Notes: generated by a model from the letters alone, not told the origin. Positions 3,794-39,579 are shown, numbered from the stretch's first letter. The stretch is DNA of 64,000 nucleotides from a virus (IMGVR_UViG_3300036766_001364:1-64000); one strand, 5' to 3'. Made by a program: numbers and translations.

Positions 3794-4196
3794 CGCCCGG
3801 CTGCCAGACGACGAACAGTTCGAGCGCGCGACGGCCGCGAAGGTGGTGCGATCCTCAGACGGCGGGTGGTCTGTCACGCGGACGAACGGCTGGGGCTGTT
3901 CGTCCAAGACGCCGGGATCACGCCCGAGGTCGGCGACGCGTTCAGGCTCTACGGGCGCGGCATCGGCTACGCCGTGCGCGGGCGAGGTGACATGCGCCCA
4001 TTTCCGTGGCACCCGCGACCCATTCGGCACGACGACGCGCATCCAGCACGGCGACGACCCCGAGGCCGCCCGCGACTTCACGGCGGGGGTCATGCCCGAG
4101 GGGGTGTGCGAGAACGGTCACGACGTGGCGCTTGAGCGGTGGCTGTTTGCCACGATGCGCCACGCCGGGTGCGCACCGACAGGAGAGGAGCGATGA
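3786..4196 (+). CDS. Hypothetical protein (136 aa)
   Basis: In-frame ATG at 3786 after GAGGGA; upstream part of track ORF 3582 is probably not translated. Confidence 0.45.
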   Translation: MDDARLPDDEQFERATAAKVVRSSDGGWSVTRTNGWGCSSKTPGSRPRSATRSGSTGAASATPCAGEVTCAHFRGTRDPFGTTTRIQHGDDPEAARDFTAGVMPEGVCENGHDVALERWLFATMRHAGCAPTGEER

Positions 4197-4642
4197 CCCA
4201 GACGAACCGCGAAGCGACGCAGGCGGTGGTGGATGCCGCGCGAAAGGACGCCGCCGCGGCGAATCACCCGTTCGCATCGCTCTGTGGGTGCGATATCCAC
4301 ATCGCCCTTCGCACCCTCGACGCCACGCTGGAGACGGAGAGCGAGCGCATCTTCCGCAAGCTGTCACTCGCCTTCAACCGATGGGCTGACGGGGAGCGAC
4401 ACAGCCACGCGGATGAATGCCTGAGCGCCGGATTCCTTACCCGCGTTACAGGCGGACGATTCACAGGCTCTCATCCATTGAACGACGTTGAAGCCACGCT
4501 AGACGCCTACCTCGCCTCCAAGCCGGAGATGCTGGATATCGCAAAGCGCGGAATACAGGATGCGCTGAACTGCTTGGGCGATACCAGATCGGTGGGGAAC
4601 CGTCTCAGCGCTCTGCTGATCGAGTTGGAGGCGGAACGATGA
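4193..4642 (+). CDS. Hypothetical protein, paralog family A (paralog at 16529..17008)
   Basis: AGGAGAGGAG RBS. Shared block ERIFRKLSLAFNRWADGER...ATLDAYLA matches DRVFRKLARSFPIWRDGQR...AALDAYLA. Confidence 0.55.
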   Translation: MTQTNREATQAVVDAARKDAAAANHPFASLCGCDIHIALRTLDATLETESERIFRKLSLAFNRWADGERHSHADECLSAGFLTRVTGGRFTGSHPLNDVEATLDAYLASKPEMLDIAKRGIQDALNCLGDTRSVGNRLSALLIELEAER

Positions 4643-4854
4643 GCGGTGAAGTCGGGCGTTCTCAACTCGATTCGATGCTGTGCGACGGCGATGGCTGTCT
4701 CGGTGATCATGACGGGCTTTTCTTCCATTCACGGTGTCACAGCAGTGTCCCGACGTGGGTGGTCTACAGCCATGGAGTTGCCACGATTACCTGCGCCGAA
4801 TGCAAAGAGCCGATAGCGCGCCTGCTCATCGGCGACTGCGAGGCGGCATCGTGA
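4639..4854 (+). CDS. Hypothetical Cys/His-rich small protein
   Basis: ORF in overlapping gene chain. Confidence 0.4.
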   Translation: MSGEVGRSQLDSMLCDGDGCLGDHDGLFFHSRCHSSVPTWVVYSHGVATITCAECKEPIARLLIGDCEAAS

Positions 4855-5033
4855 CGCAGCCCAACAGTTCTCCACAGCTACTTGGCAGAATGGAGTTCGA
4901 TGATGGCACTGGTATTGAACTGTTCCAGTGTCCTGACTGCGAGACTGTTCTCACAACCGAGATTCTTTGCCCTGTTTGTATGCTTCGTCGGGAGATAGCG
5001 GACATGCGGGAAGACTTGCGAGCGATTCGATGA
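4851..5033 (+). CDS. Small zinc-ribbon protein, paralog family B (DDGTG...CPxC...CPxC); paralog at 21310..21498
   Basis: GTG start. FDDGTGIELFQCPDCE...CPVCMLRRE matches VDDGTGFDVFLCPVC...CPICLLREE. Confidence 0.5.
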   Translation: MTQPNSSPQLLGRMEFDDGTGIELFQCPDCETVLTTEILCPVCMLRREIADMREDLRAIR

Positions 5034-5269
5034 CGCAGCCCACAAGCATCGAACTGGCAGAGGCGCTACGCACCTGTCTAGCCCGCAGTTGGCGCTATCA
5101 CGAATCAAACGACCTACAGGCCATTCTTGACGCATTTGACCCCGAGCAGGCGCGGCTAGAGGCGATGGTGGTAAAGGCGGCGCTGGTGTGGCCAAGCTCC
5201 CTCACCGAACTATGGATGGCAGTCAAATCTCTCGAAACTCACATCGCAGTGAAGGAGGCCAAGCCGTGA
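5030..5269 (+). CDS. Hypothetical protein, paralog family C (paralogs at 9327..9713 and 19545..19838)
   Basis: Shared FDPEQARLEAMVVKAAL...LETHIAVKEAKP-type C-terminus. Confidence 0.55.
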   Translation: MTQPTSIELAEALRTCLARSWRYHESNDLQAILDAFDPEQARLEAMVVKAALVWPSSLTELWMAVKSLETHIAVKEAKP

Positions 5270-5500
5270 TTAGCAGGGAACTGGCAATCGAACTGCATAA
5301 ACGGCTGAACAATGCAGGCACGCTCACTGGCTTGGGTGACGTGAAAACGGCGGTCTACGAATTAATCGAGGTAATGAGCCGACTGGTGGACGCGGCCACG
5401 GAGCACCCGCGATGAACGTACACCTGCCCGCCGAGTACCGCCTGTCGCCCGAGCGTCGTGAGCTGGTGCCGACGTGGCGGGTAATCGCGTGGAGGCCGTC

Positions 5501-5737
5501 ATGACCAAATTGCAGACCAAAGAAGTCCTGCGAGACATCGAGCGGGAACGCCGCCAGTGGGCCGATCTGATCAACCTCATCGAACGACTGGCGGAGGATA
5601 TCAGAGTCCACCTCGGCTGGTGCGAGGAACACCAGCGCTACGAACCGAACGGAGAACCGTTCGACGGGTTTCCGGGGAGCACGTACCAAGCCGACCTGCT
5701 CGCCAAAGCCGAGCGCGTGACGAAAAGAGAGGCGTAA
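5501..5737 (+). CDS. Hypothetical protein (78 aa)
   Basis: GGAGG RBS then ATG at 5501, internal to track ORF 5474. Confidence 0.45.
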   Translation: MTKLQTKEVLRDIERERRQWADLINLIERLAEDIRVHLGWCEEHQRYEPNGEPFDGFPGSTYQADLLAKAERVTKREA

Positions 5738-5738
5738 C

Positions 5739-6065
5739 ATGGGAGACATGGCGGACTTTGCCTTAGACGCCGTGATGGATGACGAAGAAGCGCGACTCGA
5801 CTTCCACATGGGTCTGACGAACATCGTCGAAGCCTATGAGCGTGGAATAGTCGATGAGCTTGGGCGCGAGCTGTCCTATCGCCTCGCTTTGCTCATCCGA
5901 TGCAAGTACTGTAGCGCTCCCGATCTTCATTGGAAAGACGTTGAACGCGGCTGGCGTCTAGTTGACGGCGCAGGAGACGTCCACAGTTGCGCGAAGTATG
6001 GACGCGCGAAGCACTCGGAGAAGCGGCGGCCCGGTTCGATGCCGGAGCTCCCGGAGGCGAAGTGA
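5739..6065 (+). CDS. Hypothetical protein (108 aa)
   Basis: AGAGAGG RBS; ORF in track. Confidence 0.45.
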   Translation: MGDMADFALDAVMDDEEARLDFHMGLTNIVEAYERGIVDELGRELSYRLALLIRCKYCSAPDLHWKDVERGWRLVDGAGDVHSCAKYGRAKHSEKRRPGSMPELPEAK

Positions 6066-6307
6066 GCGGTCTGAATCGCTATCGGCTGGCGGTCGGCCCG
6101 TGGTTGGACCGCTGGAGGGTGATGTACTCGGCGACGGTCTGCGACGGGTGGGCCCAGTCGTTCGTGGTCATCGCGCGAAGCGAGGCGGCGGCACACCTGG
6201 TCGCGAAGGGCATCAGGCTGTCGATCGCGGAAGGACTCGCCGACGCGAGCGACGTCCAGTCGCTGTACCGCGCCGCCCGGACGACCCTCGGCAGAGTCGA
6301 CTCGTGA
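6062..6307 (+). CDS. Hypothetical protein (81 aa), GTG start
   Basis: GGAGG at 6050-6054; overlap chain. Confidence 0.35.
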   Translation: MSGLNRYRLAVGPWLDRWRVMYSATVCDGWAQSFVVIARSEAAAHLVAKGIRLSIAEGLADASDVQSLYRAARTTLGRVDS

Positions 6308-6732
6308 ACGCACGTCTGTCGGTGTATTATCGCGGCGTGCGCGTCCTCGTCTGCGGAGGTCGAAACTTTGGACACCTGGCCGACTGTCGCGGTGGCGACT
6401 GCCTTTCCTGCGACCCCGTGGACTTCAAGATCATCGAGGCAGAGCTGGCGAAGCTCGGCTCGGGCGACATCGTGATCGAGGGCGACGCGCGCGGAGCCGA
6501 TCGGATCGGCGGCCACATCGCCGCGGCGTTGGGCCACGAGGTCCTCGTCTTTCCGGCGCAGTGGGATAAGTTCCACAGAGCGGCCGGACTGATCCGCAAC
6601 CAACAGATGCTCACCGAGGGGAAGCCAGACCGAGTGCTCGCGTTCCACCGCGACCTCGCGCGCTCGAAGGGGACGAAAGACATGGTAGCCCGTTCAAAGT
6701 GGGCGGGACTGCCCGTGGAGGTGTTGCCTTGA
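6304..6732 (+). CDS. SLOG / DUF2493-like Rossmann-fold protein (YspA/DprA/LOG-like)
   Basis: VLVCGGRNFG...IVIEGDARGADRIGGHIAAALG...VLVFPAQW matches the GGR...GGA.GAD SLOG signature. Confidence 0.55.
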   Translation: MNARLSVYYRGVRVLVCGGRNFGHLADCRGGDCLSCDPVDFKIIEAELAKLGSGDIVIEGDARGADRIGGHIAAALGHEVLVFPAQWDKFHRAAGLIRNQQMLTEGKPDRVLAFHRDLARSKGTKDMVARSKWAGLPVEVLP

Positions 6733-7091
6733 CTTATCCACCGGACATCCCCAAGGGGTTGTTCAGAGACGACGAGGGGTTCCTGAAGGCGGTCAAGGAC
6801 TATGACGAGAATGGCCTCCCGCGGCGGCCATCCGTCGATCCCTACGACTTGACCGGCAAAGCGTGCACGGCAGTCTCTGCGCGGGACGGGTTCAAAGGGG
6901 AGTGCGGACACCCCGCGTTCACCGTCTGGTCGTGGGCGCCTGGGCACCTCGACGGGTACCGCTGCGTCTGTTGCGTCCGCAGGGCGTGGGAGGAATCGTC
7001 TGCCAATTTGAAGAAAGAACTCGATTCCCTGCCATCGGGCTGCTCAGCGCAGTCCGAAGGACAGTCGGGAATGGAGGAAACCGATGATTAA
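6699..7091 (+). CDS. Hypothetical protein; true start is either GTG 6699 or TTG 6729
   Basis: GGAGG 7 nt before the TTG at 6729. Confidence 0.4.
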   Translation: MGGTARGGVALTYPPDIPKGLFRDDEGFLKAVKDYDENGLPRRPSVDPYDLTGKACTAVSARDGFKGECGHPAFTVWSWAPGHLDGYRCVCCVRRAWEESSANLKKELDSLPSGCSAQSEGQSGMEETDD

Positions 7092-7497
7092 GCTGGAGCG
7101 CGGCGACTATCATGTGGAGATCGAGTATCCGAAATTGGTCTGGATCGAAGGCAGACTGATTGGAGGTCACTTCGGCGACGGGTACATCGTGCGCGTGTGG
7201 CGAGACGTCCCAGAGGCCCCCGGGCCGGCGACGTGGGCCCGTTACAGCGGCGTGGGACCGGTCAATGAAGTGTACCCCTATCAGTGCTGCCTGCGGGGCG
7301 AGCTGAAGAAGCCGGGGCTGCTGTTCAACAGATCAGTTCCAAGCGTCGAGCGACAGCTCTCAGACGCCGTCGTTCGCGCCATCGTCTTGGCTGAGCGAGC
7401 TGCAGATGAGGCGCAAAAGCGACGCGTCGCCGATGAAGCGCTCGCTGATCTCATACGCAAGGAGATGGTGAGCGGACCGCATGTGGCGTCCCTGTGA
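7084..7497 (+). CDS. Hypothetical protein (137 aa)
   Basis: GGAGGAAACCG then ATG. Confidence 0.5.
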   Translation: MIKLERGDYHVEIEYPKLVWIEGRLIGGHFGDGYIVRVWRDVPEAPGPATWARYSGVGPVNEVYPYQCCLRGELKKPGLLFNRSVPSVERQLSDAVVRAIVLAERAADEAQKRRVADEALADLIRKEMVSGPHVASL

Positions 7498-7654
7498 CGA
7501 CCGTCGGGACCATATACGATCGCGTCTTACCGAGGATCAGAGAGTTGCGGGTCGGCTTCGATCGTGAGCGCGTCCTGCGCTTCGATCTATACGGATCTCC
7601 TCCGCGAGCCGTCTGGCTTCGCCTGAAGAAAGCGCGCGAAGAGAGGAAGGCGAT

Positions 7655-7975
7655 TTGACACTAAGCGTCGAAGTCAAGGCCGAACGCACGGACGCGTGGA
7701 CGGGCGCCGTCTCGGAAGGCGTCTGTCGCCTCGAGATCCGCGACGGCCACGATAAAAAGCCGTGGATCTACATTACGCGCGGGGGCGTGACCGGCTACGA
7801 GTCCCTGTCCGTCGAGTCTTTTCTGAAGCGCGACCGCTGCGATCCCGACGCGTGCGACAAATCCTGGAACGCCTGCTGGGGCACGGAGAAGCGATGGGAC
7901 GGGCTCGTCGTGCCCGCCCGCGAGTTCCACCGCGCGCTGAAAGAGCTGGGGGTCTTCGATGACGTGCGAGCGTAA
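7655..7975 (+). CDS. Hypothetical protein (106 aa), TTG start
   Basis: GAGGAAGG RBS. Confidence 0.45.
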   Translation: MTLSVEVKAERTDAWTGAVSEGVCRLEIRDGHDKKPWIYITRGGVTGYESLSVESFLKRDRCDPDACDKSWNACWGTEKRWDGLVVPAREFHRALKELGVFDDVRA

Positions 7976-8064
7976 GAACTGCGTCGGCGAGTCAGACGCA
8001 CGCGAGCACCGTCGGCCGTGCGGCCCGATCCAGCCGAACGAGGTCGTATGCGGGGAGGACGACC

Positions 8065-9222
8065 ATGCTCCAGACTGAAGGAGAGAGCGCGGTGGGCATA
8101 TTCGGTCACGTCGCGATGACGGTCTCTCCCCTGACGTACACGATTTCTGTCGCGGGCATCATCGATCTCGCGTTCGCCTCTAACCTCTCTCGATGGGAGA
8201 GCGTCTACCTCGTGCAGGTGATGAGCGAGTCGGGGCTGCCGGTCGTCGACCCGCTGCTCGCGCTCAAGGGACTCGAGTTCGCGTGTCTCGTGAGCAGGAC
8301 AGACAGCATCTCGGTGGACGCGTTCTGCTCGACAGGCGGCTGCTTCGTGCGCTCGACTTACCACCGCAGCGACCGCAGGCTCATCGCCGAGGTCGCCGCT
8401 CAGACCGCGGCGGACGCCGAGCGGATCGCCGGCCTGATCAGGGCGAACATGCCCGCGCCCGTCAAGGCCCTGGACGGGACCTGCCCGTTCACTTTCTGGA
8501 ACAGGTCTGACAGCGGCCCGCGCAGCTTCTATCGGAGGCTTGCGGTCCCGGCGTGGGACGCGATCATGGACAACTACGCCGAGAGGACAAGGGACGCGCT
8601 GGACGACCTCATGAGCATGGCGCCGCCGCTGCCCGGCGGGCGCCTGGTGCTGCTGCACGGTGACCCCGGGACGGGAAAGTCCTACGCTATCCGCGCGCTC
8701 GCGAACCGGTGGGCGCCGTGGTGCGCGGCCCACTACGTGACCGACCCCGAGGCGTTCTTCGGAGACGCTTCCTACCTGATGTCGGTGCTCCTCAGTCAGA
8801 GTGAGACGGCAGCGGCGGTGGAACCGGACGAGGGGGCGGGCAGCCGCTGGCGGCTGATCATCGCAGAAGACGCAGACCAGTACCTCTCGTCGGACGCGCG
8901 CGAGCGCAGCGGGTCGGCTCTCGGCCGCTTGCTCAACGTCACCGACGGGCTGATCGGCCAGGGGTTGAACATGATCGTCCTGCTGACGACGAACGAGCCG
9001 CTGGACAAGATCCACCCCGCCGTGAGCCGCCCCGGCCGCTGCCTCAACAGCACCGAATTCATGGCGCTGTCGCTCGAAGAATCGACGCGATGGCTGGCGA
9101 ACCGCCGCACAGACGCGCCCGTCGACAAGCCCCTCACCATCGCCGAACTGTACGAACGAGCCAGCGGTACGGAGCATGGGAACACGCGCTCGTCTCGCCG
9201 CGCGATCGGCTACTTGACCTGA
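8065..9222 (+). CDS. AAA+ family ATPase with an N-terminal domain of about 190 aa of unknown function
   Basis: Walker A LLHGDPGTGKSY, Walker B LIIAEDADQYL, sensor-2 PAVSRPGRC. Confidence 0.8.
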   Translation: MLQTEGESAVGIFGHVAMTVSPLTYTISVAGIIDLAFASNLSRWESVYLVQVMSESGLPVVDPLLALKGLEFACLVSRTDSISVDAFCSTGGCFVRSTYHRSDRRLIAEVAAQTAADAERIAGLIRANMPAPVKALDGTCPFTFWNRSDSGPRSFYRRLAVPAWDAIMDNYAERTRDALDDLMSMAPPLPGGRLVLLHGDPGTGKSYAIRALANRWAPWCAAHYVTDPEAFFGDASYLMSVLLSQSETAAAVEPDEGAGSRWRLIIAEDADQYLSSDARERSGSALGRLLNVTDGLIGQGLNMIVLLTTNEPLDKIHPAVSRPGRCLNSTEFMALSLEESTRWLANRRTDAPVDKPLTIAELYERASGTEHGNTRSSRRAIGYLT

Positions 9223-9282
9223 CTCGGCCACGCGGGCGTGTCGCCGACTGGTCTCCGTTCGCCCCATGACGCACGCTCTCGC

Positions 9283-9297
9283 GTGATATATTAGTAC
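9283..9297 (+). promoter_or_regulatory. Promoter-like gtgaTATATTagtac, 30 nt upstream of gene 9327
   Basis: AT-rich island; same motif at 14699-14714. Confidence 0.4.
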
Positions 9298-9326
9298 CAG
9301 CAACGCAACGGCGAGAGGACGACCAG

Positions 9327-9713
9327 ATGAAGTCCACGAACAGCGACATGACTGAGGCGCTGCGTTTAATTGCAGACCTTTCACCCGTAGCATCGGACGT
9401 CCGATGGGATGCAGAAGACGGCTATGCAGCCTATCGCACGCTCGACGGTAAACGTGAGTCCGTGCGGTGCTACGTTGGTGCGCATAACTCGGGGGACTCA
9501 GAGGATTTTGGCTACGAAATGGGCCTGTGGGCCGCAGCTAAAATAGCTCGGAAGTACCTTGTGGGCTTCGACCCCGCGCAGGCGCGGCTAGAGGCAGCGG
9601 TGGTAGAAGCTGCGTTGGCTACTCATACCAAAAGAGCCTATGCCAACCAAGAGTTCGATACCGCCCTTTACAATCTCGAAGCTCACATCGCAGCGCAGGA
9701 GGCAGGAGCGTGA
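9327..9713 (+). CDS. Hypothetical protein, paralog family C
   Basis: FDPAQARLEAAVVEAAL...LEAHIAAQEAGA C-terminus. Confidence 0.5.
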   Translation: MKSTNSDMTEALRLIADLSPVASDVRWDAEDGYAAYRTLDGKRESVRCYVGAHNSGDSEDFGYEMGLWAAAKIARKYLVGFDPAQARLEAAVVEAALATHTKRAYANQEFDTALYNLEAHIAAQEAGA

Positions 9714-9982
9714 ACAGGTCCACTCAAGAAGAGCGCAGAGCCGCCCGAGCGAAGCGCGCTGTCGCCTACGCTGCTCGCGACGCGGCCAAGTACGACGGCC
9801 CAGAAATCGGCTGGAGTGATCTCACGCTCGCGGAGCGGGAGCGCGTGAAAGCGATGCCCTGCTGGGGCGGTCGCGCGTGGCCGTTCGAGCGCTACGGCTA
9901 TCGGCGCGAGCGAGCGGGCGGGATGTCTGTCCGCGACTACGACGCGCTGGCCGACGTGTTCTTCGTCGAGGCCGAGCGGTGA
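9710..9982 (+). CDS. Hypothetical protein (90 aa)
   Basis: GTG overlap start. Confidence 0.4.
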   Translation: MNRSTQEERRAARAKRAVAYAARDAAKYDGPEIGWSDLTLAERERVKAMPCWGGRAWPFERYGYRRERAGGMSVRDYDALADVFFVEAER

Positions 9983-10494
9983 TGCAGCCATTCGAACGTG
10001 TCGAGCCGATTCTCAACGCGGCGATCATCGATGAGGCCAGGCGCGACCCAGAGTTCGCGAACGTGCTCGAGGAGCATCAGAGGAAGTACGCCTCTGGAGA
10101 GTCGACGCTCTGGCGCAACGACGCCTATCAGGTCGAGGTCGACACGAACCCGTCTGTCCATTCGGCGTGGCCGAAGACCGTCCACCTCTCGATCAAGCGC
10201 GTCGACAGAGAGCCGATCCACGACTGGCGCGAGCTGCAAGAGATCAAGAACGCGCTCGTCGGCCCCGAGGTCGAGGCGATGGAGCTCTACCCAGCCGAGA
10301 GCCGCGTCGTGGACACGGCCAATCAGTACCACCTGTGGGCGATCGTCGAACCCGGTGCGCGGTTCCCGGTCGGGTTTGAACAGGGATCGCGCGTCGGGGC
10401 CGACGACGCCGCGAGGGTGGGAGCGAGACAGCGCCCATTCAACAAGCCAGCGAACCGGGCCGCGCGGCGCAGGGCGATGAGGGATCGCCGATGA
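9982..10494 (+). CDS. Hypothetical protein (about 170 aa)
   Basis: ATG at 9982, inside track ORF 9877. Confidence 0.45.
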   Translation: MQPFERVEPILNAAIIDEARRDPEFANVLEEHQRKYASGESTLWRNDAYQVEVDTNPSVHSAWPKTVHLSIKRVDREPIHDWRELQEIKNALVGPEVEAMELYPAESRVVDTANQYHLWAIVEPGARFPVGFEQGSRVGADDAARVGARQRPFNKPANRAARRRAMRDRR

Positions 10495-11489
10495 AGTCGA
10501 CGCGCTACCTCCAGGCCCTCGAGACGCAGATCGACCTCAAGCGGTTCTACGAGTCCGCCGACGGGAAGGCCATCTACTTCGCCTCGCGGACGGGAGACAC
10601 GACGCCCGGCGGCAGGGATCTGGCCGACGCGCGCAGCGTCCACTACGACGCGCTGCTGTGCCTACTGGACGTCGGCACGCCGACGTATGTCGACCCGAGG
10701 ATCACGCAGGCGCTGTCTGACGCGATGCCCACCCTGCCGGACAAGATCCCGCTCCACGCCGACGACGTGCCCATGCCCAGCGGGTTCGCCTACCTCGACG
10801 GAGCGCCGTGGCGCCTGCCGCCGACGGTCGCCGGGTTCGAACAGTCGATCACCGCGATCGGCTGGCTGACGCTGAAGGACGGCCTCATCTGGGTCAGCGC
10901 GTTCGGGACCGTGCGCGAGCCGGGTCATCCGTCGGCCGTCGACCACCTGTCTCAGGTGCTGTTCTCGGAGGCCTGGCGCGTGGGAGACCCCATCGACCAC
11001 GACGGCGACCTGGCGAGAGAGCTCGCGCACGTCGGAGAAGACACGTCGGTCCACGTGAAGTTCATAGACCACACCCAGACCGCGCGCGTCATCGACGTCC
11101 CGGCCGCCGACGTGTACGCGTCTGAGTACATGCGACGGATCGAGGGGCGGCGATTCGCCTACGCGCTGTGGCACTTCATGGGGCAGCGGATCGTCTCGCT
11201 AGAGCGCGGCCACCTAGATCGGGCGACGCGACGGAGGATGCCGCCAGAGCGCCAGGACTCGGTCGTCCAGATCGTCGAACTGCGCGCGCGACAGGTGACG
11301 CCGCGCGAGCCGGGGATGGAAGAAGCGTCGCGCCAGTACAGCGTGCGCTGGGTCGTGCGCGGGCACTGGCGCTCGCAGTGGTACCCGTCGCTCGACAGGC
11401 ACAAGCCCCTCTGGATCTCGGCCTACGACAAGGGGCCAGAGGGCGCTCCCCTCAGGAGCGCTACCAAGCTCTTCGCGGTGGCGCGCTGA
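10491..11489 (+). CDS. Hypothetical protein (332 aa)
   Basis: ORF in track, overlap chain. Confidence 0.5.
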   Translation: MKSTRYLQALETQIDLKRFYESADGKAIYFASRTGDTTPGGRDLADARSVHYDALLCLLDVGTPTYVDPRITQALSDAMPTLPDKIPLHADDVPMPSGFAYLDGAPWRLPPTVAGFEQSITAIGWLTLKDGLIWVSAFGTVREPGHPSAVDHLSQVLFSEAWRVGDPIDHDGDLARELAHVGEDTSVHVKFIDHTQTARVIDVPAADVYASEYMRRIEGRRFAYALWHFMGQRIVSLERGHLDRATRRRMPPERQDSVVQIVELRARQVTPREPGMEEASRQYSVRWVVRGHWRSQWYPSLDRHKPLWISAYDKGPEGAPLRSATKLFAVAR

Positions 11490-11710
11490 TGTCGCGCGAT
11501 CTTCAGGCCCTAAGTGATGCAGCCGGATACGACGAGGCTGGCCAACTCGCCCTCGCTGAGATCCTAGACCTGGCCTCGTCCGAGGACAGATCGATCACGC
11601 GCCTGCGCGAGATCCGCGCCCTCTGCCTCGATATCCGGCGGCACCACTACGCGCTGGCAGGTATGCCGGACCCAGGCGACGACTCTTCATTCACGCGAGC
11701 GACACGCTGA
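11486..11710 (+). CDS. Hypothetical protein (74 aa)
   Basis: ATG internal to track ORF 11168. Confidence 0.4.
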   Translation: MMSRDLQALSDAAGYDEAGQLALAEILDLASSEDRSITRLREIRALCLDIRRHHYALAGMPDPGDDSSFTRATR

Positions 11711-12006
11711 TGTACGTCCACGAATGCGGGGCCTGTTTCGCGCCGATGAATCGCCACAGCGAGATGTGCGTCTTCGGCTGTTTCCACTGGCCAGCGCTCT
11801 GTTGCCCAGGCTGCGACTGCGAATCATTCCAGGAAGCTCATCCACCCGACACAGTGCTGCGCCCCGGCGTCGACCGCGTTTTTGGGCGATTCACCTATAT
11901 TGGGTTCGATCAAGCCGCGTGGAACGAGCTCGGAGCACGTGTCTCTGCACTACCTGACGGCCCTGGTGGCGCGGCGCGCGGTCGAGATGGGGAGATATAC
12001 GCATGA
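11710..12006 (+). CDS. Cys-rich protein, paralog family D (HEC..C...C...C.HW...CCPGC.C.SF.E.H); paralog at 19348..19548
   Basis: HECGACFAPMNRHSEMCVFGCFHWPALCCPGCDCESFQEAH matches HECLVCFTLIGRHGRCPLGCDHWEPFPCCPGCKCGSFEESH. Confidence 0.5.
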   Translation: MYVHECGACFAPMNRHSEMCVFGCFHWPALCCPGCDCESFQEAHPPDTVLRPGVDRVFGRFTYIGFDQAAWNELGARVSALPDGPGGAARGRDGEIYA

Positions 12007-12239: not shown

Positions 12240-12284
12240 CGAGCAGCTCATCGCGGCGACCGCCGCGCCGAGGAGGCTCATCAC

Positions 12285-14203: not shown

Positions 14204-14607
14204 GCTGCGCTCACGTCGATGACGATGGCCTCTCCTGGTGGGGCGGAGCCGTCAAGATCATGCTCTCCTGCCACCACACCCCGAGGGGATATGTCCTGCT
14301 CGGGGTCGTCGAGCATCCGGAGGTCGCCGTCTACCTCGGGACGAGCCTCCACTGGGAGGAGAATCACGCGCGACCGGGCGGATGGACCGACTGCCGACAC
14401 TGGTACGGGGACGATCCGGACGACATGAGGATGGTCTACGCAGCGATGCGCCAGTGTCTCATCGCGGGCGACAGCGAAGCTCGCTGGCAGGACTTCGCGG
14501 CAGACGAGGACGTCGGCAAGCGCTCGCCGCGCGGCATGGCCGCGACTCTGGGCATCGTCTCAGCCACATTCAAGGCCCTCCTCGGCGATGAGCAGCGCTC
14601 CACCTAG
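14200..14607 (+). CDS. Hypothetical protein (135 aa)
   Basis: ORF in track. Confidence 0.45.
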   Translation: MSCAHVDDDGLSWWGGAVKIMLSCHHTPRGYVLLGVVEHPEVAVYLGTSLHWEENHARPGGWTDCRHWYGDDPDDMRMVYAAMRQCLIAGDSEARWQDFAADEDVGKRSPRGMAATLGIVSATFKALLGDEQRST

Positions 14608-14698
14608 GACAGGCAGGGGGACGCACAAACAGTCTGGTAAGATGTCTTATAATGCGCAAGAGACTGGAGATTGCCGAGCGCTTCACCCTCAATTCTCC

Positions 14699-14714
14699 CG
14701 TGGTATATTAGTAC
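14699..14714 (+). promoter_or_regulatory. Promoter-like gtggTATATTagtac directly upstream of 14724. A tcttATAATg hexamer also lies at 14648.
   Basis: AT-rich intergenic island 14610-14723. Confidence 0.4.
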
Positions 14715-14723
14715 TACACGACG

Positions 14724-14960
14724 GTGAATGATGGGGAATCGATGATCGGCTACCAGCGCTTCGGGGGTTTGGCCGAGGTGGACATCGCCAAACTGACGGC
14801 CGAGTGTTCTAAGGTCGCGTACTCGTCGGCCGCCACGGCGCACCATTCGCTGGCCGAGATCCGCGTGAAGAACCTCGATGACGGCCTGCGCGTATACCAC
14901 TGTCCGCACTGCGAGCTCTGGCATGTGGGACACAGCAAGCGGCCGCGAGTAACGCCTTGA
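14724..14960 (+). CDS. Hypothetical protein (78 aa) with a C-terminal CPHCxxWH motif
   Basis: ORF in track after the promoter-like island. Confidence 0.45.
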   Translation: MNDGESMIGYQRFGGLAEVDIAKLTAECSKVAYSSAATAHHSLAEIRVKNLDDGLRVYHCPHCELWHVGHSKRPRVTP

Positions 14961-15119
14961 CTGCCGCTGACAAGGGCGATGTTCAGGCGATCTCGATCGG
15001 CAGCCAGACGCTGTGGGGCAGGGTCGCAGCGATCGGCCTCATAGGGGGCGAGCGGTACTACTGGATGGTGGACAAGAACTCCGTGTCAACGATGCCGGCG
15101 TGCGTGGTGGAAGCGTGAA
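14958..15119 (+). CDS. Possible small ORF (53 aa, TTG start)
   Basis: GC3-rich frame after the 14960 stop; weak support. Confidence 0.2.
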
Positions 15120-15290
15120 GACTCTCTCGTTTGGACGCGTTCATCTTGGCGTCTCGACCCAGCTCATGCTCGGCGTGGCTTGGTTCGACTCCTCGCTCGA
15201 GCTGAGCGTTGGCCCGTTCTTCGTGCTCGTGCTCTTCTGGAAAATAAAGAGCGACGGCGCCCACGGCGCTGTCGAGACAGCGGGCCCCAG

Positions 15291-16532
15291 ATGATTGATG
15301 TCTTCAAGACCGAGAACGCGTTCGGGACCGGGGAAGTCCGCTCGTGGGCGTCTCTGCTCGACGAGAACTGCCGCCGGCAAGCCGAGGCGATCAGTCGCGT
15401 GCCGATCCTGGACGGCTACCTCGCGCTCATGCCCGACGCCCACTTCGGCTACGGGCCGCCTGTCGGCTCGGCGTTAATCACGACCGACGCGATCATGCCC
15501 TACGCGGTCGGGAGTGACATCGGCTGCGGGATGATCGCCATCAAGACAACCATAGAACGGGGCCGATTCGGCGAAACCGAACTGCACCGGCTGGCGGGGA
15601 ACGTCCGCACCCTGATCCCTTCGGGGCCAGCAGCACACGAGACGCCCTCGGAACTCAGCGATGAGTTCTTCGCGGGCTATGGCGATGCGCCGGGCCTCAC
15701 TCTGTTTGGGCAACGGGCGGAACACATGGCCTCAACCGCTCGGCGACAATTCGGTACTCTCGGCGCGGGCAATCATTTTGTGGAAGCGTGCGTCGGATTC
15801 GATTCGCCCGAAGCGCCCGTTTGGCTTGTGCTTCACAGCGGATCACGCGGCATCGGGAAGATGCTCTGCGACGTTCATGTAGCGGCTGCCAAGGCGGTCT
15901 GCATGAGAGACGTGGAGCGGCTGGAGTCCCCCGACTTCGCCTTCGTGCGGCGGGGCGATCCCGCGTATGGGGCATACATCGCGGACATGGTGTGGGCGCA
16001 GAATTTCGCTCACCACCAGCGCGAGGCAATGATGGAGGCGTTCATCGACGCCGTCAAGACTTCGCTCGGTATCACACACGACTCGCTCGACTACGAGACC
16101 GTGGCGAACTGCCACCACAACTACGCCGAGGAGATCGCCCCGAGTCGGTGGCTGACCCGCAAGGGCGCGATCGACGCTTCGCTCGGCGCCGTGGGCGTCA
16201 TCCCCGGCTCGATGGGCGCCGCGACATACATCGTCCGCGGCCTCGGCAACGAAGAAGCGTACTGCACGTCTCCGCACGGGGCGGGTCGACTGCTCGGACG
16301 CGGCGTCGCTCGGCGCACCCTGAGCCTCGACGACTTCAGGGCGCAGATGGGCGGCCGGACGTGGCAGGACCGAGACGCCGACGAGCTGCTCGACGAAGCG
16401 CCGGGGGCGTACAAGCCGATAGAGACCGTGATCGCAGACAGCGCGTCGCTGGTCGAGACGACCGCCGTGTTGAGTCAGTTCTTCAACTACAAGGGGGTCG
16501 GCTCGGGCCACGGGAAAGGCGTGAAGCGATGA
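15291..16532 (+). CDS. rtcB: RNA-splicing ligase RtcB (3'-phosphate/5'-hydroxyl RNA ligase)
   Basis: LMPDAHFGYGPPVGS, GSDIGCGMIA, NCHHNYAEE, SPHGAGR. ATG at 15291 is the likely start; the upstream part of track ORF 15180 is not RtcB-like. Confidence 0.9.
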   Translation: MIDVFKTENAFGTGEVRSWASLLDENCRRQAEAISRVPILDGYLALMPDAHFGYGPPVGSALITTDAIMPYAVGSDIGCGMIAIKTTIERGRFGETELHRLAGNVRTLIPSGPAAHETPSELSDEFFAGYGDAPGLTLFGQRAEHMASTARRQFGTLGAGNHFVEACVGFDSPEAPVWLVLHSGSRGIGKMLCDVHVAAAKAVCMRDVERLESPDFAFVRRGDPAYGAYIADMVWAQNFAHHQREAMMEAFIDAVKTSLGITHDSLDYETVANCHHNYAEEIAPSRWLTRKGAIDASLGAVGVIPGSMGAATYIVRGLGNEEAYCTSPHGAGRLLGRGVARRTLSLDDFRAQMGGRTWQDRDADELLDEAPGAYKPIETVIADSASLVETTAVLSQFFNYKGVGSGHGKGVKR

Positions 16533-17008
16533 GTCCCTCAACGAGCCGTGACGACGCCACCAGAATGTTGATAGAGGCCGTGCGGCTAGAACACGCGGCC
16601 CATGGGAACCCACGCGACGGCGATTGCGCGCTCTGCGTCGCTCTCCGCGACCTCGACGATGCGCCTGAAGAGACCGACGCAGACCGCGTCTTTCGCAAGC
16701 TGGCACGATCGTTCCCCATCTGGCGAGATGGCCAGCGGACGCCGGCAAACCACGATTGGCTGTGTGGACGATTTCTCAACGAAGTCTTGGGGACGACCTA
16801 CAAACACGAGTGGATAGGCGTCCAAGCCCAAGAATGGACCGATGCCGATGCGGCGCTCGACGCTTATCTCGCTCACGCTCAATCGAACGGCGGGGTGAAG
16901 CTAGAGAAGCTGCGACGCGCCGCGGCTGGCGTGTTTCCCGACGGCGATAGGAACGCGCCATCGAGGGCTTGGGATGAGCTCCGCAGCGCACTGGATGAGA
17001 CGCGATGA
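16529..17008 (+). CDS. Hypothetical protein, paralog family A
   Basis: See 4193..4642. Confidence 0.5.
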   Translation: MSPSTSRDDATRMLIEAVRLEHAAHGNPRDGDCALCVALRDLDDAPEETDADRVFRKLARSFPIWRDGQRTPANHDWLCGRFLNEVLGTTYKHEWIGVQAQEWTDADAALDAYLAHAQSNGGVKLEKLRRAAAGVFPDGDRNAPSRAWDELRSALDETR

Positions 17009-17211
17009 GCGATCGCGCTGTCGAGTGTTGGTCATATCTGTGTGCCGCGATCGTGAGTATGTCGATCGCGTGGCTCATCGGCCTGGCGGCTTTTGTAGAT
17101 TGGAACAATCGCGATCTCACTTTTCGCGCCTGCGTAGCTTACGCCTACGGAATACTGCCGTTCGTGCTGGCGGGGGTCGTCGGCGCCGTTATGGCTTGGA
17201 GGAAGCGATGA
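17005..17211 (+). CDS. Small membrane protein (2 TM segments)
   Basis: Hydrophobic ORF in overlap chain. Confidence 0.4.
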   Translation: MSDRAVECWSYLCAAIVSMSIAWLIGLAAFVDWNNRDLTFRACVAYAYGILPFVLAGVVGAVMAWRKR

Positions 17212-17606
17212 ATCACTATCACAGTTCCAAGGAGACATGTCCGGTGTGTTCTCCCGTTGCCGATATGACGACGCTACACGACAGGATGGAAGCCGCGATC
17301 ACACGAGCTGCGTCTGAGCACGACTACGGCTGCGGACACCTCGGCCTGATGATCGAGCTCGTCGCCTGTCTTCGCGGCGTCTCGGCAGAATTAGACGCGA
17401 AGCGCTCCGAGAACACAGACACCATGAACCGCATCATCGAACGAGATCTCCTGGTCGCTCAGCTCCGGCGCGTTCTCGCGATCTACGCGCAGCTTGGCAA
17501 CCCGGAGTTCATCAAGCAGTTAGTAGAATCCAAGCGGTTCTTCGACGATGGTGGCGTGGGAAAGACGCTCGCAGACTTGGTCACAGAGATCGGTGACGAC
17601 CGATGA
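17208..17606 (+). CDS. Hypothetical protein (132 aa), CPVC near the N-terminus
   Basis: ATG internal to track ORF 16974. Confidence 0.45.
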   Translation: MNHYHSSKETCPVCSPVADMTTLHDRMEAAITRAASEHDYGCGHLGLMIELVACLRGVSAELDAKRSENTDTMNRIIERDLLVAQLRRVLAIYAQLGNPEFIKQLVESKRFFDDGGVGKTLADLVTEIGDDR

Positions 17607-17782
17607 GCGTGTGCGTCTACGTCGCCTGCGATCGCTGCGGAGCCGCGACCGAGGCGTACCGCCTGAGGGCGCAGGCAGTCAGATCTGCGAAGCTCTCCGG
17701 ATTCTTGACGCGCGGAAAGAGGAACTACTGCTCTGTCGAATGCGACCGCCTCGAGAGCGTCCGACTGGAGAAGGAGGCGTAA
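17603..17782 (+). CDS. Small zinc-ribbon-like protein (59 aa)
   Basis: CDRCG...CSVEC; below the 60-aa track cutoff. Confidence 0.3.
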   Translation: MSVCVYVACDRCGAATEAYRLRAQAVRSAKLSGFLTRGKRNYCSVECDRLESVRLEKEA

Positions 17783-17980
17783 GTGGCAGGCGAGATGGCG
17801 CAGTTCCGCGGCGGCGGGCCGTGGGACGGCAAGCGCGCGAAACTGTCTGTGTGGCCGCCGCCAGAACGCATCGGCGACTACGAGCGCGTTTCTTACAGTC
17901 AGCTCACAGAAGAGCAGGCGGGACAGTACGTCGTGCGCGGTGCCGATTACAGGTACGCCCCGCAGATCGAGGAGGCGTGA
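17783..17980 (+). CDS. Hypothetical protein (65 aa)
   Basis: AAGGAGG RBS then GTG. Confidence 0.4.
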   Translation: MAGEMAQFRGGGPWDGKRAKLSVWPPPERIGDYERVSYSQLTEEQAGQYVVRGADYRYAPQIEEA

Positions 17981-18309
17981 TGTTTCGGAGAAGGGTCGCT
18001 CCCGAATCAGAATACGTCGCTCGCGCGCGAGCCAACCTCGCAATATTAGATGAGCTCATCGCCTGCGCCAGAGAGCAGGTCAGGCTCGGCGAGGAGCTCT
18101 TTGAGGTCCGTCGGAACGCGTATCTGACTATGGCGAAACTGCCCACGTCGCTAGAGGCGCTCCGCGAACTGTATGCCTCTCCCGGCGTCGTTGACGTCGA
18201 ACGAGCGCGAACGGCCAGGGAGCGGACTCGCGATGTGTTGGCATGCGTCGACGGAGATGGGGTCGATATGGGCCAGTCGACGACGATCGAGGCGGTGTCT
18301 GGGTCATGA
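17980..18309 (+). CDS. Hypothetical protein (about 110 aa)
   Basis: ATG inside track ORF 17548. Confidence 0.4.
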   Translation: MFRRRVAPESEYVARARANLAILDELIACAREQVRLGEELFEVRRNAYLTMAKLPTSLEALRELYASPGVVDVERARTARERTRDVLACVDGDGVDMGQSTTIEAVSGS

Positions 18310-18701
18310 AGATGCCGAAATTCAGGCGCTCGCCCGCGCCGCCCAAAGAGACGGGACGCGAATACGACTACACGAAACCAGGGGATGGACACGGCCTCAC
18401 GTTCGTCCACATGGACGAAAAGAACGTCCACCATGTCTCCGGCTTTGGACCAGACTGGGGCTCGTGTCAGCAGTCCAAAGACACCGTGCAGGCCATCATG
18501 CGCGTCGGTGGGATCATCAACGACTGGACGGTATTCGACCGCAAGCTCGTGCCCGGCGACGTGCTCCTGGCCCGGTTCGCCGACGCGGACGATGAGCCGT
18601 ACACGGGGCGCTGTCTCGTCATGACGGTGGAGTACTACGACGATCCCAAGGACATGTTCCAGGCGACACTGAGGAACATGGGAAGGCAGTCGGAGCCGTG
18701 A
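18306..18701 (+). CDS. Hypothetical protein (131 aa)
   Basis: ATG inside track ORF 18243. Confidence 0.45.
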   Translation: MKMPKFRRSPAPPKETGREYDYTKPGDGHGLTFVHMDEKNVHHVSGFGPDWGSCQQSKDTVQAIMRVGGIINDWTVFDRKLVPGDVLLARFADADDEPYTGRCLVMTVEYYDDPKDMFQATLRNMGRQSEP

Positions 18702-18943
18702 TCGCCCTTGAACGCAGCGACGGGACGGCAGAGCCTGAGCTCGCCGACAGTTATGGATTGGCCGTGACCTTCGCCTGCGAGGGCGGTAAACGCGCCATTT
18801 CGTTCTGTTCGCGTCCCATCGCGTACGGGCACCTCGTCCCTGATTTTGGCCCTGGCATCTGGGGGCTTCAGTGCAAGATGCACTCAGCGGGATGCAGGCG
18901 AAGCCACCCCGATCACGTGGTGGCCGTGAAGGTGGCCTCGTGA
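18698..18943 (+). CDS. Hypothetical protein (81 aa)
   Basis: GTG overlap start. Confidence 0.35.
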   Translation: MIALERSDGTAEPELADSYGLAVTFACEGGKRAISFCSRPIAYGHLVPDFGPGIWGLQCKMHSAGCRRSHPDHVVAVKVAS

Positions 18944-19167
18944 ATTCGCGTCCGATACCCGACGTGGGGACCATCGAGCGCAAGACGTTCTTTGCGGTCT
19001 TCCCGCGGTGGTGCAAGCCGACCAGGAATTGGGTGTGGCTGGCCGATGTCGTCCTCGTGTGCGAAGTCAATACTGAGCGTAAGTTCGACTGGGACTTGGA
19101 CAGGTGGGTTGACGAGCCACGATGGATCAGCTGGTATGAGATGTCACCTGAGGAAGCAGCACCGTGA
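18940..19167 (+). CDS. Hypothetical protein (75 aa)
   Basis: GTG overlap start. Confidence 0.35.
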   Translation: MNSRPIPDVGTIERKTFFAVFPRWCKPTRNWVWLADVVLVCEVNTERKFDWDLDRWVDEPRWISWYEMSPEEAAP

Positions 19168-19355
19168 CGCGGCTCAATGCCTGTTGCGAGCACCAAGTGC
19201 CGAGCGCTGGGTATGCGCGGCATGGCGACCTGTGGACGTGCCCCACCTGCGACTCGCGGTGGGTTCACGACTGCGATGAGGCCGAGGGGTGTGCGTGGTA
19301 TTTGTCCAAGCGCAGGGGGCCAGACAGCCCGACGAGGGGAGCGCACTATGCATGA
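19164..19355 (+). CDS. Hypothetical Cys-rich small protein
   Basis: ORF in track. Confidence 0.35.
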   Translation: MTRLNACCEHQVPSAGYARHGDLWTCPTCDSRWVHDCDEAEGCAWYLSKRRGPDSPTRGAHYA

Positions 19356-19548
19356 GTGCCTGGTATGCTTTACCCTCATCGGCAGGCACGGTCGATGCCC
19401 GCTTGGCTGCGACCATTGGGAGCCATTTCCCTGTTGTCCTGGCTGTAAGTGTGGCAGTTTCGAAGAATCCCACCGGGGCGTGATCCTGTCTGCTGAACAG
19501 CAAGAATGGGTGCGAGAGTTTCGAGAGACAATGGAAGCAGCATCGTGA
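19348..19548 (+). CDS. Cys-rich protein, paralog family D (CCPGC)
   Basis: ATG at 19348 after GAGGGGA; see 11710..12006. Confidence 0.5.
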   Translation: MHECLVCFTLIGRHGRCPLGCDHWEPFPCCPGCKCGSFEESHRGVILSAEQQEWVREFRETMEAAS

Positions 19549-19838
19549 CACGGCCCACGAGCGATGACGCTCTCACGCCACATGTAATCGAATTCGCCGA
19601 GGCGCTGCGCGACGCCGCGCGATTCCTCTGGGATGACTATCACGCCATCGCTGCCGAGTACCAAGCCCTGCTCACCGAGTTCGACTATCGCTTCGATCCC
19701 GAACGGGAGCGGCTAAGGGACGCGGTGGCGGACGCGGCGCTGACAGCCGCGCTTCCTCACGACGCGTGGGCGAGTCGGGTATGGAACGCCAGCCGCGCAC
19801 TCAGAGACCACATCGCGACAAAGGAGATCAAGACATGA
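19545..19838 (+). CDS. Hypothetical protein, paralog family C
   Basis: GTG at 19545; VTRPTSDDALTPHVIEFAEALR matches MTQPTSIELAEALR of 5030..5269; C-terminal FDPERERL...LRDHIATKEIKT. Confidence 0.5.
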   Translation: MTRPTSDDALTPHVIEFAEALRDAARFLWDDYHAIAAEYQALLTEFDYRFDPERERLRDAVADAALTAALPHDAWASRVWNASRALRDHIATKEIKT

Positions 19839-20029
19839 TTGATCGTCGGCACGCTCTCGGGGGAGTCTGCGTCGTCTGCTCACCGGCCTCGCACGTTGTG
19901 AAAGATGAAATTGAAGCGCAATATCTACTGGCCATCGGAAAAGCCACGAATCGGGGAGACAACGATAGGGCGCAGCACCTCTCAACGGGGCTGGCGGAAT
20001 ATCGGCATCACTACAAGGTGCTCTCATGA
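19835..20029 (+). CDS. Hypothetical protein (64 aa)
   Basis: AAGGAG RBS then ATG at 19835. Confidence 0.35.
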   Translation: MIDRRHALGGVCVVCSPASHVVKDEIEAQYLLAIGKATNRGDNDRAQHLSTGLAEYRHHYKVLS

Positions 20030-20424
20030 CCGACGCGCCGCACGAGACGATGGACGCCGCAGACAGTGTGGTCGAGTGGCTCGCTGAGCACCTATTCGGA
20101 TGGAAGCATGGCTCGGGACCACTGAGTCAGTGGTGGATCACCCCGCCGGGCGCACATGTGAGCCCGATCGGCTGGACATGTTATCTAAAGTCGTGGTCTG
20201 AGACCGGCGATGGGATGCTGCTGGTCATGGAGGCGATGCGTGAGCGCGGCTACCTGGTGGAACTAGTCAGCCACGCTCAAACGCTCCCTGCCTACATCTG
20301 GGGGGTTGAGTTCGCAGATGTCGAGAGGTCGTATGAGACCGCATACAGCGCATCAGCGCCGATGGCCGTCGCGAAGGCCGCAAAGCGGGCGTTGGAAGAT
20401 AGCGTGAGAGGGGACCGGCAATGA
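20026..20424 (+). CDS. Hypothetical protein (132 aa)
   Basis: ORF in track. Confidence 0.45.
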   Translation: MTDAPHETMDAADSVVEWLAEHLFGWKHGSGPLSQWWITPPGAHVSPIGWTCYLKSWSETGDGMLLVMEAMRERGYLVELVSHAQTLPAYIWGVEFADVERSYETAYSASAPMAVAKAAKRALEDSVRGDRQ

Positions 20425-20458
20425 CTGACGCTTCGCGTGAAGCCAGAACGACCGGGCC

Positions 20459-20881
20459 TTGAACGTCATCTTCCTCGACATCGACGGCGTGCTGAACACG
20501 CCCGAGACCCCAACCCGCACGCGCGACGGGCGTTTCCTCGGCCTGGACCCCGTCTTAGTCGCGCGGTTCTGTGAGCTGCTCGCGCGGACGGACGCGAGGG
20601 TCGTCCTGTCGTCGACGTGGCGCGGGGTTCTAGAGCTCTACGACATAGTGGCCGCGGCCGTGCCGGTCATGGACGTGACCCCGTATTTCCCAGGAGAGAT
20701 GCGCGGGACCGAGATCGCTTCTTGGCTGGGCTCTCACCCAGACGTCGAGCGATACGCGATCATCGACGACGACCGAGACATGCTGCCGTCGCAGATCGCA
20801 TTCTTCACTGACTACAGCGAGGGGTTGACAGACGGGATCGTCGAGCAGATATGCGCGCACTTCGAGAGGGGAACGCGGTGA
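20459..20881 (+). CDS. HAD-superfamily phosphatase (polynucleotide 3'-phosphatase / nucleotidase-like)
   Basis: Motif I IFLDIDGVLNT, motif AIIDDD; TTG start. Confidence 0.6.
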   Translation: MNVIFLDIDGVLNTPETPTRTRDGRFLGLDPVLVARFCELLARTDARVVLSSTWRGVLELYDIVAAAVPVMDVTPYFPGEMRGTEIASWLGSHPDVERYAIIDDDRDMLPSQIAFFTDYSEGLTDGIVEQICAHFERGTR

Positions 20882-21141
20882 CGATCTACGTCGACGCCAT
20901 GTACGCGCGGTTCGGGCGCATGAAGATGTCGCACATGATCACGGACGGAGACGACGATGAGCTGCACGCGATGGCCGACGCGATCGGGGTCGCGAGAAAG
21001 TGGTACCAGGGAGATCACTACGACGTCTGCATGTCTAAGCGCCGGCTCGCCGTGGCGCGGGGAGCGCTTGAGATCGGACCGCACGAACTGGGCGCGTGGC
21101 TCAGGAATCGCCGCAAGGACGGGAGAGCGCACCGTGGCTAA
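20878..21141 (+). CDS. DUF4031-family protein
   Basis: VTIYVDAMYARFGRMKMSHMITDGDDDELHAMADAIG...WYQGDHYDV; GTG at 20878. Confidence 0.55.
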   Translation: MTIYVDAMYARFGRMKMSHMITDGDDDELHAMADAIGVARKWYQGDHYDVCMSKRRLAVARGALEIGPHELGAWLRNRRKDGRAHRG

Positions 21142-21313
21142 GCGCTGCGCCGGCGGGTTCCCAGATCGCGGCGACCAGTGCGACAGCCCTCCCGGCCCGA
21201 GGAACCCGGTCTGGTGCGACGCGTGCGACGTGATCCGCATGGAACACTTGGACGGGCAGATGAAAGCGCTCGCCGAAAAGTTCGGGATGAAACCGAGCGA
21301 TGAACGGCGATGA
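21134..21313 (+). CDS. Small Cys-containing protein (59 aa)
   Basis: GTG overlap start. Confidence 0.3.
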   Translation: MAKRCAGGFPDRGDQCDSPPGPRNPVWCDACDVIRMEHLDGQMKALAEKFGMKPSDERR

Positions 21314-21498
21314 AACCACCAGGATACATCGGGCGGATCACCGTGGACGACGGCACTGGGTTCGACGTGTTCCTGTGTCCAGTCTGTCGCATCCTGCTGT
21401 GGGACGACGCCGCGTGCCCCATCTGTCTGCTGCGCGAAGAGGTACGGACACTGGAGCGGAGACGGATCGGTCACGAGCCGCCCGCTCTTCGGTTGTAG
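21310..21498 (+). CDS. Small zinc-ribbon protein, paralog family B
   Basis: See 4851..5033. Confidence 0.5.
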   Translation: MKPPGYIGRITVDDGTGFDVFLCPVCRILLWDDAACPICLLREEVRTLERRRIGHEPPALRL

Positions 21499-39538: not shown

Positions 39539-39579
39539 TACGACGCCTCCGGAGTCGAGCCCCCCTCGTTAGTAGTACA

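Follow-up and report, generated by a model that had tools for sequence, protein, structure and literature searches.

Four lineage-restricted families of small proteins in the accessory arm of a large, high-GC tailed phage

We analysed a stretch of 64,000 nucleotides (nt) of viral DNA, IMGVR_UViG_3300036766_001364:1-64000 (here called the window), in which nine genes for small proteins, all read from the plus strand between positions 4193 and 21498, fall into four families that we designate A, B, C and D. Our preferred explanation, to which we give somewhat more credence than doubt, is that A to D are families of small accessory proteins, restricted to one lineage and unrelated to each other, which were mostly assembled by exchange and whose members may function as binders or modulators. 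The copies would mostly have been gathered by horizontal exchange and recombination in a pool of related high-GC phages that has been little sampled, rather than by recent duplication within the genome. Early in infection, the small proteins would bind host or phage macromolecules stoichiometrically or modulate them, and diverged copies might address different targets or variants of a target. We prefer exchange to local duplication because the G+C content at third codon positions (GC3) of the family genes is low, because one copy of family D lies near sequences from outside this genome, and because no further paralog pairs accompany the four families.

Sequence relationships within and between the families

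All nine open reading frames (ORFs) are intact and in frame, begin with ATG or GTG, lie exactly where an earlier reading of the DNA, made from the sequence only, had placed them and carry the motifs which that reading had quoted. Family A consists of A1 (4193..4642, 149 amino acids (aa)) and A2 (16529..17008, 159 aa), which share the motifs RxFRKL, WxDGxR and LDAYLA. Family B consists of B1 (4851..5033, 60 aa) and B2 (21310..21498, 62 aa), family C of C1 (5030..5269, 79 aa), C2 (9327..9713, 128 aa) and C3 (19545..19838, 97 aa), and family D of D1 (11710..12006, 98 aa) and D2 (19348..19548, 66 aa).

The grouping into four paralogous families was confirmed by two kinds of comparison. All-against-all BLASTP of the 301 plus-strand ORFs of the window, the check that the sequence-only reading had proposed, recovered the four core pairs (A1-A2, E = 3e-8; B1-B2, 1e-11; C1-C3, 4e-7; D1-D2, 2e-10) and, within the first 40 kb, no further paralogs. 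With phmmer, the comparison of 54 curated genes gave E-values of 4.8e-15 for A1-A2, 1.4e-14 for B1-B2 and 1.9e-12 for D1-D2; within family C it gave 6e-9 for C1-C3, 2.6e-7 for C1-C2 and about 1e-3 for C2-C3, the weakest link, and no other pair fell below 0.02. Hidden Markov models (HMMs) of the families found no further members of A to D in all six frames of the window. Distant kinship between A and C or between B and D was ruled out by hhalign, leaving four families that are mutually unrelated.

Spurious ORFs are abundant in high-GC DNA and some of the family members are not called by gene finders, so that the similarities might be thought to reflect chance or low complexity in the form of cysteine spacing, non-coding ORFs, or the chimeric assembly of two related phages. 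Against this, E-values reach 1e-15 with composition correction, third codon positions have diverged more than first and second positions, and family D has independent homologues elsewhere. Nor does the similarity reduce to cysteine spacing, which the sequence-only reading had named as the result that would undo it: A has a single conserved Cys and C has none, and B and D share many other residues (DDGTG and LR.E in B; HW.P and SF.E.H in D). Finally, an independent assembly, SRR11714510, is 100% identical to window positions 1-30881 and carries both clusters of family genes on one contig; the window is therefore not chimeric. Further independent assemblies of the phage are 99.8-99.9% identical to the window. 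The chance-or-chimera explanation is effectively refuted, and we assign it a negligible probability.

As had been surmised, none of the families matches a known one. Searches of Pfam, PHROGs, NCBIfam and PADLOC with the nine proteins and with gene x (4639..4854, plus strand; 71 aa with 6 Cys), which lies between A1 and B1 and has neither a paralog nor a family match, returned sub-threshold noise only; the best PHROGs match had E = 1.3e-3 over 16 residues only, and no PADLOC defence profile did better than E = 0.03. Translated searches with A2, B2, C3 and D2 (tblastn) found no match in 50,697 deposited phages. Sequence and profile searches of the PDB gave nothing for A and D, matches only at E of at least 0.38 for C, and matches only at E of at least 0.03, to generic zinc fingers, for B. 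Scans of viral contigs yielded no relatives of A, B or C, a literature search found no description of the families, and a search for relatives in synteny, anchored on 10491-11489 and 18306-18701, found nothing useful.

Predicted character and distribution of the families

The sequence-only reading had described all four families as Cys-rich, zinc-binding modules. This description fits B and D, whereas A and C are predicted to be helical and are nearly or entirely free of conserved Cys.

Judged from its sequence, family D represents a Cys/His mini-domain of viruses that is both new and rare and has no Pfam or PHROGs entry. Both window copies begin with this domain of about 44 aa, followed by a variable tail in D1 and by a C-terminal helix in D2. 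The family consensus reads H-x-C-x2-C-F ... H ... C ... [HY]-[WF]-P-x-L-C-C-P-G-C-x-C-x-S-[FH]-E-[ED]-A-H, after which members have nothing or variable tails, and 7 Cys and 4 His are conserved in most of them. Outside the window, two proteins among 5.8e9 belong to the family, and DNA-level scans added members from IMG/VR, from JGI/ENA metagenomes and from a Thiodictyon metagenome-assembled genome, for about 10 distinct members on unrelated, phage-like contigs of 52-67% GC. The outside loci have no other gene in common with the window and no member of A, B or C. Their neighbouring genes vary (a NUDIX protein, an amidase, a protein that is SLOG-like by eye, and many small Cys-containing ORFs), and the neighbour analysis found no recurrent partner gene.

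WhiB-like proteins (PF02467) are small iron-sulfur (Fe-S) or Cys-rich proteins common in actinophages, with a four-Cys Fe-S pattern and a G[VI]WGG turn. Family D resembles them in being small, rich in Cys and located in the non-structural regions of high-GC phages. It differs in its ligand spacing, HxCxxC...H..C...HW...CCPGCxC...H, and, when aligned by eye, in having no G[VI]WGG turn; at E <= 1, six D members matched no Pfam family, PF02467 included. The invariant CCPGCxC of the family (for example at 11797-11820 and 19432-19455) resembles the engineered tetracysteine tag CCPGCC for FlAsH labelling, which suggests a tight hairpin lined with Cys. In the literature, CCPGC was found only as that engineered tag.

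Family B proteins carry a DDGTG motif, two knuckles in the arrangement CPxC-x9-CPxC and a C-terminal helix. The ligands C27-P-x-C30 ... C40-P-x-C43 are invariant in B1, B2 and P0016, a protein of 55 aa that was the one plausible relative (E = 5e-4) found by an exhaustive search of 1.84e9 representatives; beyond the family itself, this search returned generic CPxC repeats. Two CxxC knuckles with a spacer of beta-hairpin length are what defines a zinc ribbon, and the only weak matches of B are to proteins of the zinc-ribbon or rubredoxin-knuckle type. With such mini-proteins (zf-ChsH2 (PF12172), DZR-type and bL32-type), B shares a pair of CPxC knuckles spaced by 9 residues in about 60 aa; unlike them, it has the DDGTG motif and the LR.E helix, which are not part of those families. 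Its scores also lie far below the curated cut-offs of the named families (zf-ChsH2, 13.4 bits against a cut-off of 23.2; DVU_1557, 15.5 bits against 60).

A profile of family A found only the two window copies among 5.8e9 proteins. The start of A2 overlaps the stop codon of a gene for the RNA ligase RtcB (ATGA). Archease (PF01951), an alpha/beta protein, is an activator of RtcB and is often encoded beside it. A2 is comparable to archease in its size of about 150 aa and in its translational coupling to RtcB, whereas family A does not match PF01951, is predicted to be all-helical (pLDDT, the predicted local distance difference test, 47, an unreliable model) rather than alpha/beta, and has in A1 a member that is not near any RtcB. 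We rejected A2 as a conserved partner of RtcB, as none of 32 viral loci bearing RtcB has an A-like gene beside it. The RtcB gene itself (15291-16532) has relatives at 59% and 52% identity in two IMG/VR contigs (L018 and L019), where its neighbours are entirely different, including a ThyX-like gene downstream in L018, which marks RtcB as itself a mobile module.

Family C is predicted to be a helical protein devoid of metal ligands. Its members share EALR ... FDPxxxRL..AV..AAL ... L..HIA..E and no conserved Cys, and the middle of C2 is lengthened by an insertion of about 50 aa. Among 5.8e9 proteins, the family is represented by the window proteins and one variant allele only.

Origin of the copies, gene arrangement and strain polymorphism

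Between paralogs, differences are most frequent at third codon positions; the nonsynonymous divergence (dN) is 0.49-0.70, and the synonymous divergence (dS) is at least 0.85 and in part uncomputable. With dS saturated, dN below dS and third positions leading the divergence, the copies are by these measures ancient and have been maintained as proteins, with no sign of recent duplication. At the DNA level, the copies show no similarity except for one 29-nt island in C1 and C2. The nine family genes also have a lower GC3 (0.654) than the 44 other genes of the array (0.771; Mann-Whitney p = 6e-4), a difference that persists when gene length is regressed out (permutation p = 5e-5). The nearest relatives of D1 are, by a marginal difference, outside sequences and not D2, a hint of acquisition by exchange.

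The families lie in the order A1-x-B1-C1 ... C2 ... D1 ... RtcB-A2 ... D2-C3 ... B2. They are dispersed in a tightly packed array, upstream of the replication module, of about 55 small genes that are translationally coupled. A1, x, B1 and C1 are joined by 4-nt stop/start overlaps (ATGA/GTGA), the GTG start of B1 overlapping the stop codon of gene x, and D2 and C3 are joined likewise; GGAGG motifs resembling ribosome-binding sites (RBS) are present in the region. The sequence-only reading had seen repeated cassettes here. The contiguity of A1-x-B1-C1 and of D2-C3 is real; the repetition is not, as no two-family adjacency occurs twice and the 54 curated genes contain no extra paralog pairs. A larger segmental duplication of 4-12 kb against 16-22 kb was likewise rejected, with no gene pairs to support it. 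The one regular feature is the position of C1 and C3, each directly behind a small gene of zinc-binding type (B1 and D2, respectively). Between 3500 and 23050, 16 of the 44 genes of at most 140 aa encode at least 4 Cys, and 7 encode at least two knuckles of CxxC/CxxH type; putative small metal-binding proteins are thus generally frequent in the array, not only in families B and D.

These observations bear on the proposal of the sequence-only reading that small zinc-binding modules were duplicated and shuffled within the genome, partly as cassettes, and serve as host-takeover or anti-defence factors. All copies of A, B and C occur only in this phage lineage, which is what duplication within the lineage would predict; small Cys-containing proteins abound in the region, and C1 and C3 each follow a gene of zinc-binding type. 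On the other hand, no adjacency is repeated, A and C are not rich in Cys, dS is saturated, DNA similarity is limited to a single short island, and no further paralog pairs are found; moreover, the nine genes are atypical in GC3, family D has relatives outside the genome that are nearer or equally near, and neither PADLOC nor the other libraries gave a match. Duplication and shuffling within the genome is thus not favoured, and we regard it as a possible but rather unlikely account.

The adjacency of C genes to genes of zinc-binding type could also mean that the functional unit comprises two genes, with an exchangeable small zinc protein (B or D) coupled to a downstream helical partner (C), perhaps as an effector with its chaperone, adaptor or inhibitor. 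Both B1 to C1 and D2 to C3 are coupled by 4-nt overlaps, and in a variant strain described below each of the two C genes has a zinc-type gene before it, B1 in the case of a mosaic C gene and D2 in that of C3; by a rough estimate, the chance that two of three C genes lie behind one of the four B and D genes among about 54 is about 0.02. Yet the 16 Cys-rich small genes in the array make such an adjacency much less surprising. In addition, C2 lacks a zinc-type partner and follows a promoter-like site of its own, no C gene accompanies D1 or B2, and none of the roughly 10 outside D loci has a C-like gene. We consider a two-gene module improbable.

The promoter-like site upstream of C2 (9265..9297, plus strand; ATGACG-17-TGATATATT) includes the 16-mer CGTGrTATATTAGTAC at 9282-9297, and C2 is the first gene behind it. 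A second such site at 14682-14714 has the same 16-mer at 14699-14714. Both lie in intergenic gaps, of which the array has few, and both place a -35-like hexamer (ATGACG or TTCACC) 16-17 nt upstream of an extended -10 element, TGrTATATT. The two sites are probably phage promoters read by a host sigma factor.

The 29-nt island, TTTGACCCCGAGCAGGCGCGGCTAGAGGC, lies at 5135..5163 in C1 and, nearly identical, at 9567..9595 in C2 (both on the plus strand; two matches against 0.00 expected), within genes that are otherwise diverged. The rare Leu codon CTA inside the island is kept in C1, C2 and C3. A variant contig from sample ERZ27247924 follows the window over 4924-5067, continues with 74 nt absent from the window, and rejoins it at 9565, matching it from there on at 99.75% identity. 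The variant strain, about 99.8-99.9% identical to the window, thereby lacks a segment of 4.5 kb (5068..9564, plus strand) and has the 74 unique nt instead. This strain-variable segment begins 38 nt into C1, and its right junction is the 29-nt island in C2; it comprises the 3' part of C1, genes for a YAcAr/SLOG protein and an AAA+DUF5925 ATPase, seven small unknown genes, the first promoter-like site and the 5' part of C2. The C gene of the variant (P0010, 86 aa) is a composite of three parts: 13 residues from the N terminus of C1, then 25 that are unique, then the C-terminal 48 of C2. As the cassette of 4.5 kb by which this co-circulating strain differs starts in C1 and ends in C2, we infer that family C sequences are active recombination junctions. 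B1, too, opens with C-type DNA: its first 16-17 nt are the same as those of C1, the start of C3 is related, and the resemblance to C-family starts covers the first 6 codons of B1. This indicates sub-genic mosaicism at gene starts.

Two other differences between strains were observed. A segment of about 1.5 kb, 39067-40543, is missing from the SRR9617649 assembly (L007), and its edges show only about 5 nt of microhomology (ACCGTA/ACAGTA), that is, illegitimate recombination. The variant strain (L004) also departs in the region that lies upstream of the window (L003/L004), where its DUF932 gene is followed by a different module of small genes, another mosaic difference.

Family C could then be mainly a recombination adapter, the conserved DNA at its 5' and 3' ends acting as portable homology arms for cassette swaps between co-infecting relatives and the protein mattering less. 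This would fit the boundaries of the 4.5-kb indel within C1 and at the C2 island, the three-part mosaic gene of the variant, the C-type DNA at the start of B1 and the CTA codon kept in three copies; the slight microhomology at the 39067-40543 indel also sets the C-bounded indel apart as different in kind. However, these junctions represent a single event, and any paralog pair may serve as an accidental recombination substrate. Values of dN below dS and conserved residues outside the island speak for a selected protein, the C DNA motif was not found in IMG/VR, and the 3' conservation is partly that of the RBS of the downstream gene (AAGGAGG). We judge a primary role as adapter very unlikely. 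Equally small is the probability that we give to a joint reading, in which the C genes would be recombination adapters flanking exchangeable cassettes (such as the 4.5-kb cassette with the AAA-ATPase and SLOG genes) and family D would have a new structure, a double-zinc fold centred on a natural CCPGCxC hairpin.

Returning to lineage-restricted accessory families assembled mostly by exchange, several points weigh against this explanation. The low GC3 may have causes unrelated to foreign origin, such as weak expression or rapid evolution. The copies of A, B and C, families that have no known donor lineage outside, may also stem from ancient duplication within the lineage. The identity of D1 to its best outside relatives (56-58%) exceeds its identity to D2 (53%) by a gap that, over about 45 residues, is within noise. 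The variant strain did not arise by a simple crossover between C1 and C2, which is ruled out by the 74-nt middle that is foreign to the window; at least one more parental sequence is therefore needed. The event could be either an insertion in the window type or a deletion with replacement in the variant. As for function, the classical four-Cys zinc ribbon with a C-terminal helix predicted for B and the two structural zinc ions that D most likely binds are read from the ligand patterns only, and the AlphaFold2 models of A (two sequences, all helix, pLDDT 47) and of D (four sequences, pLDDT 57) are unreliable. Early expression is no more than plausible from the position upstream of the replication module and from the two promoter-like sites.

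Phage setting and significance

The window derives from a tailed phage, about 172 kb in size (source contig, 171,975 bp) and of about 64% GC, that has been recovered from metagenomes only. Its nature follows from the packaging and portal genes near and just beyond the end of the window: the large terminase gene starts at about 62.8 kb (62814-64000, continuing past the window end; phrog_38, 1e-34), and downstream of it, past the window, lies a gene for a 1048-aa protein with a portal match (phrog_18178, 5e-47); the region is covered by L053 11291-16797. The end of the window coincides exactly with the start of the packaging and structural module, and the family region forms the distal part of a rightward non-structural arm of about 60 kb. 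The window has a GC content of about 64% and a strong GC3 periodicity, and nearly all genes from about 3.5 kb on lie on the plus strand. Convincing minus-strand genes are found only at its left edge (1353-1955 and about 2086-2349), divergent from the rightward array. By megablast against the deposited phages, the 4-22 kb region has no DNA relatives.

The replication module at 41-62 kb encodes Pol A (36% identical to the Pol I of a Gordonia phage), DnaB, a primase, RecA, dUTPase, dCMP deaminase and a protein of the uracil-DNA glycosylase family, together with an MT-A70 methylase, NADAR, thymidylate synthase and a cytosine methylase. The last of these (55090-57315, 741 aa) is a DNA cytosine methylase with LAGLIDADG_2 and intein-splicing matches, and probably contains an intein. 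The same module holds the only other paralog pair of the window, 51051-51425 and 54283-55089 (E = 1e-6), whose Pfam matches, weak to DUF559/MTES_1575 and faint to NUMOD3, suggest two free-standing genes of homing-endonuclease type.

Accessory arrays of small genes and the exchange of modules are well known from the non-essential regions of T4-type phages and from the mosaicism of actinophages and lambdoid phages. The window resembles the accessory arrays of tailed phages in its dozens of co-oriented, overlapping small ORFans, in the gain or loss of multi-gene blocks between strains, and in its sub-genic mosaic junctions. It differs from typical tailed-phage mosaicism in having one indel whose junctions lie inside paralogs of the same genome, and not at gene boundaries or in unrelated sequence. 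The families are thus new and the phenomenon is familiar: orphan small-gene families and mosaic exchange in the accessory arm of a large phage, a fairly ordinary content.

Genes of this kind are readily missed. B1, D1, D2 and a Cys-rich gene at 19164-19355 are each uncalled by gene finders in at least one public assembly (L003, L050, L051), B1 in L003 and D2 in two assemblies, and our DNA-level scans found D members that the collection of 5.8 billion proteins lacks. As gene finders miss conserved small genes such as B1, D1 and D2, scans at the DNA level recover members that protein databases do not hold.

The gains from this analysis are modest; the most useful among them are that family D can be defined, that genes of this kind prove to be under-called, and that a cassette polymorphism bounded by family C has come to light. 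Were any of the families to prove a host-takeover or anti-defence factor, which is purely hypothetical, it would be a new one. The 4.5-kb cassette, with its junctions inside paralogs, provides a clean natural example for the study of how phage accessory regions are rebuilt.

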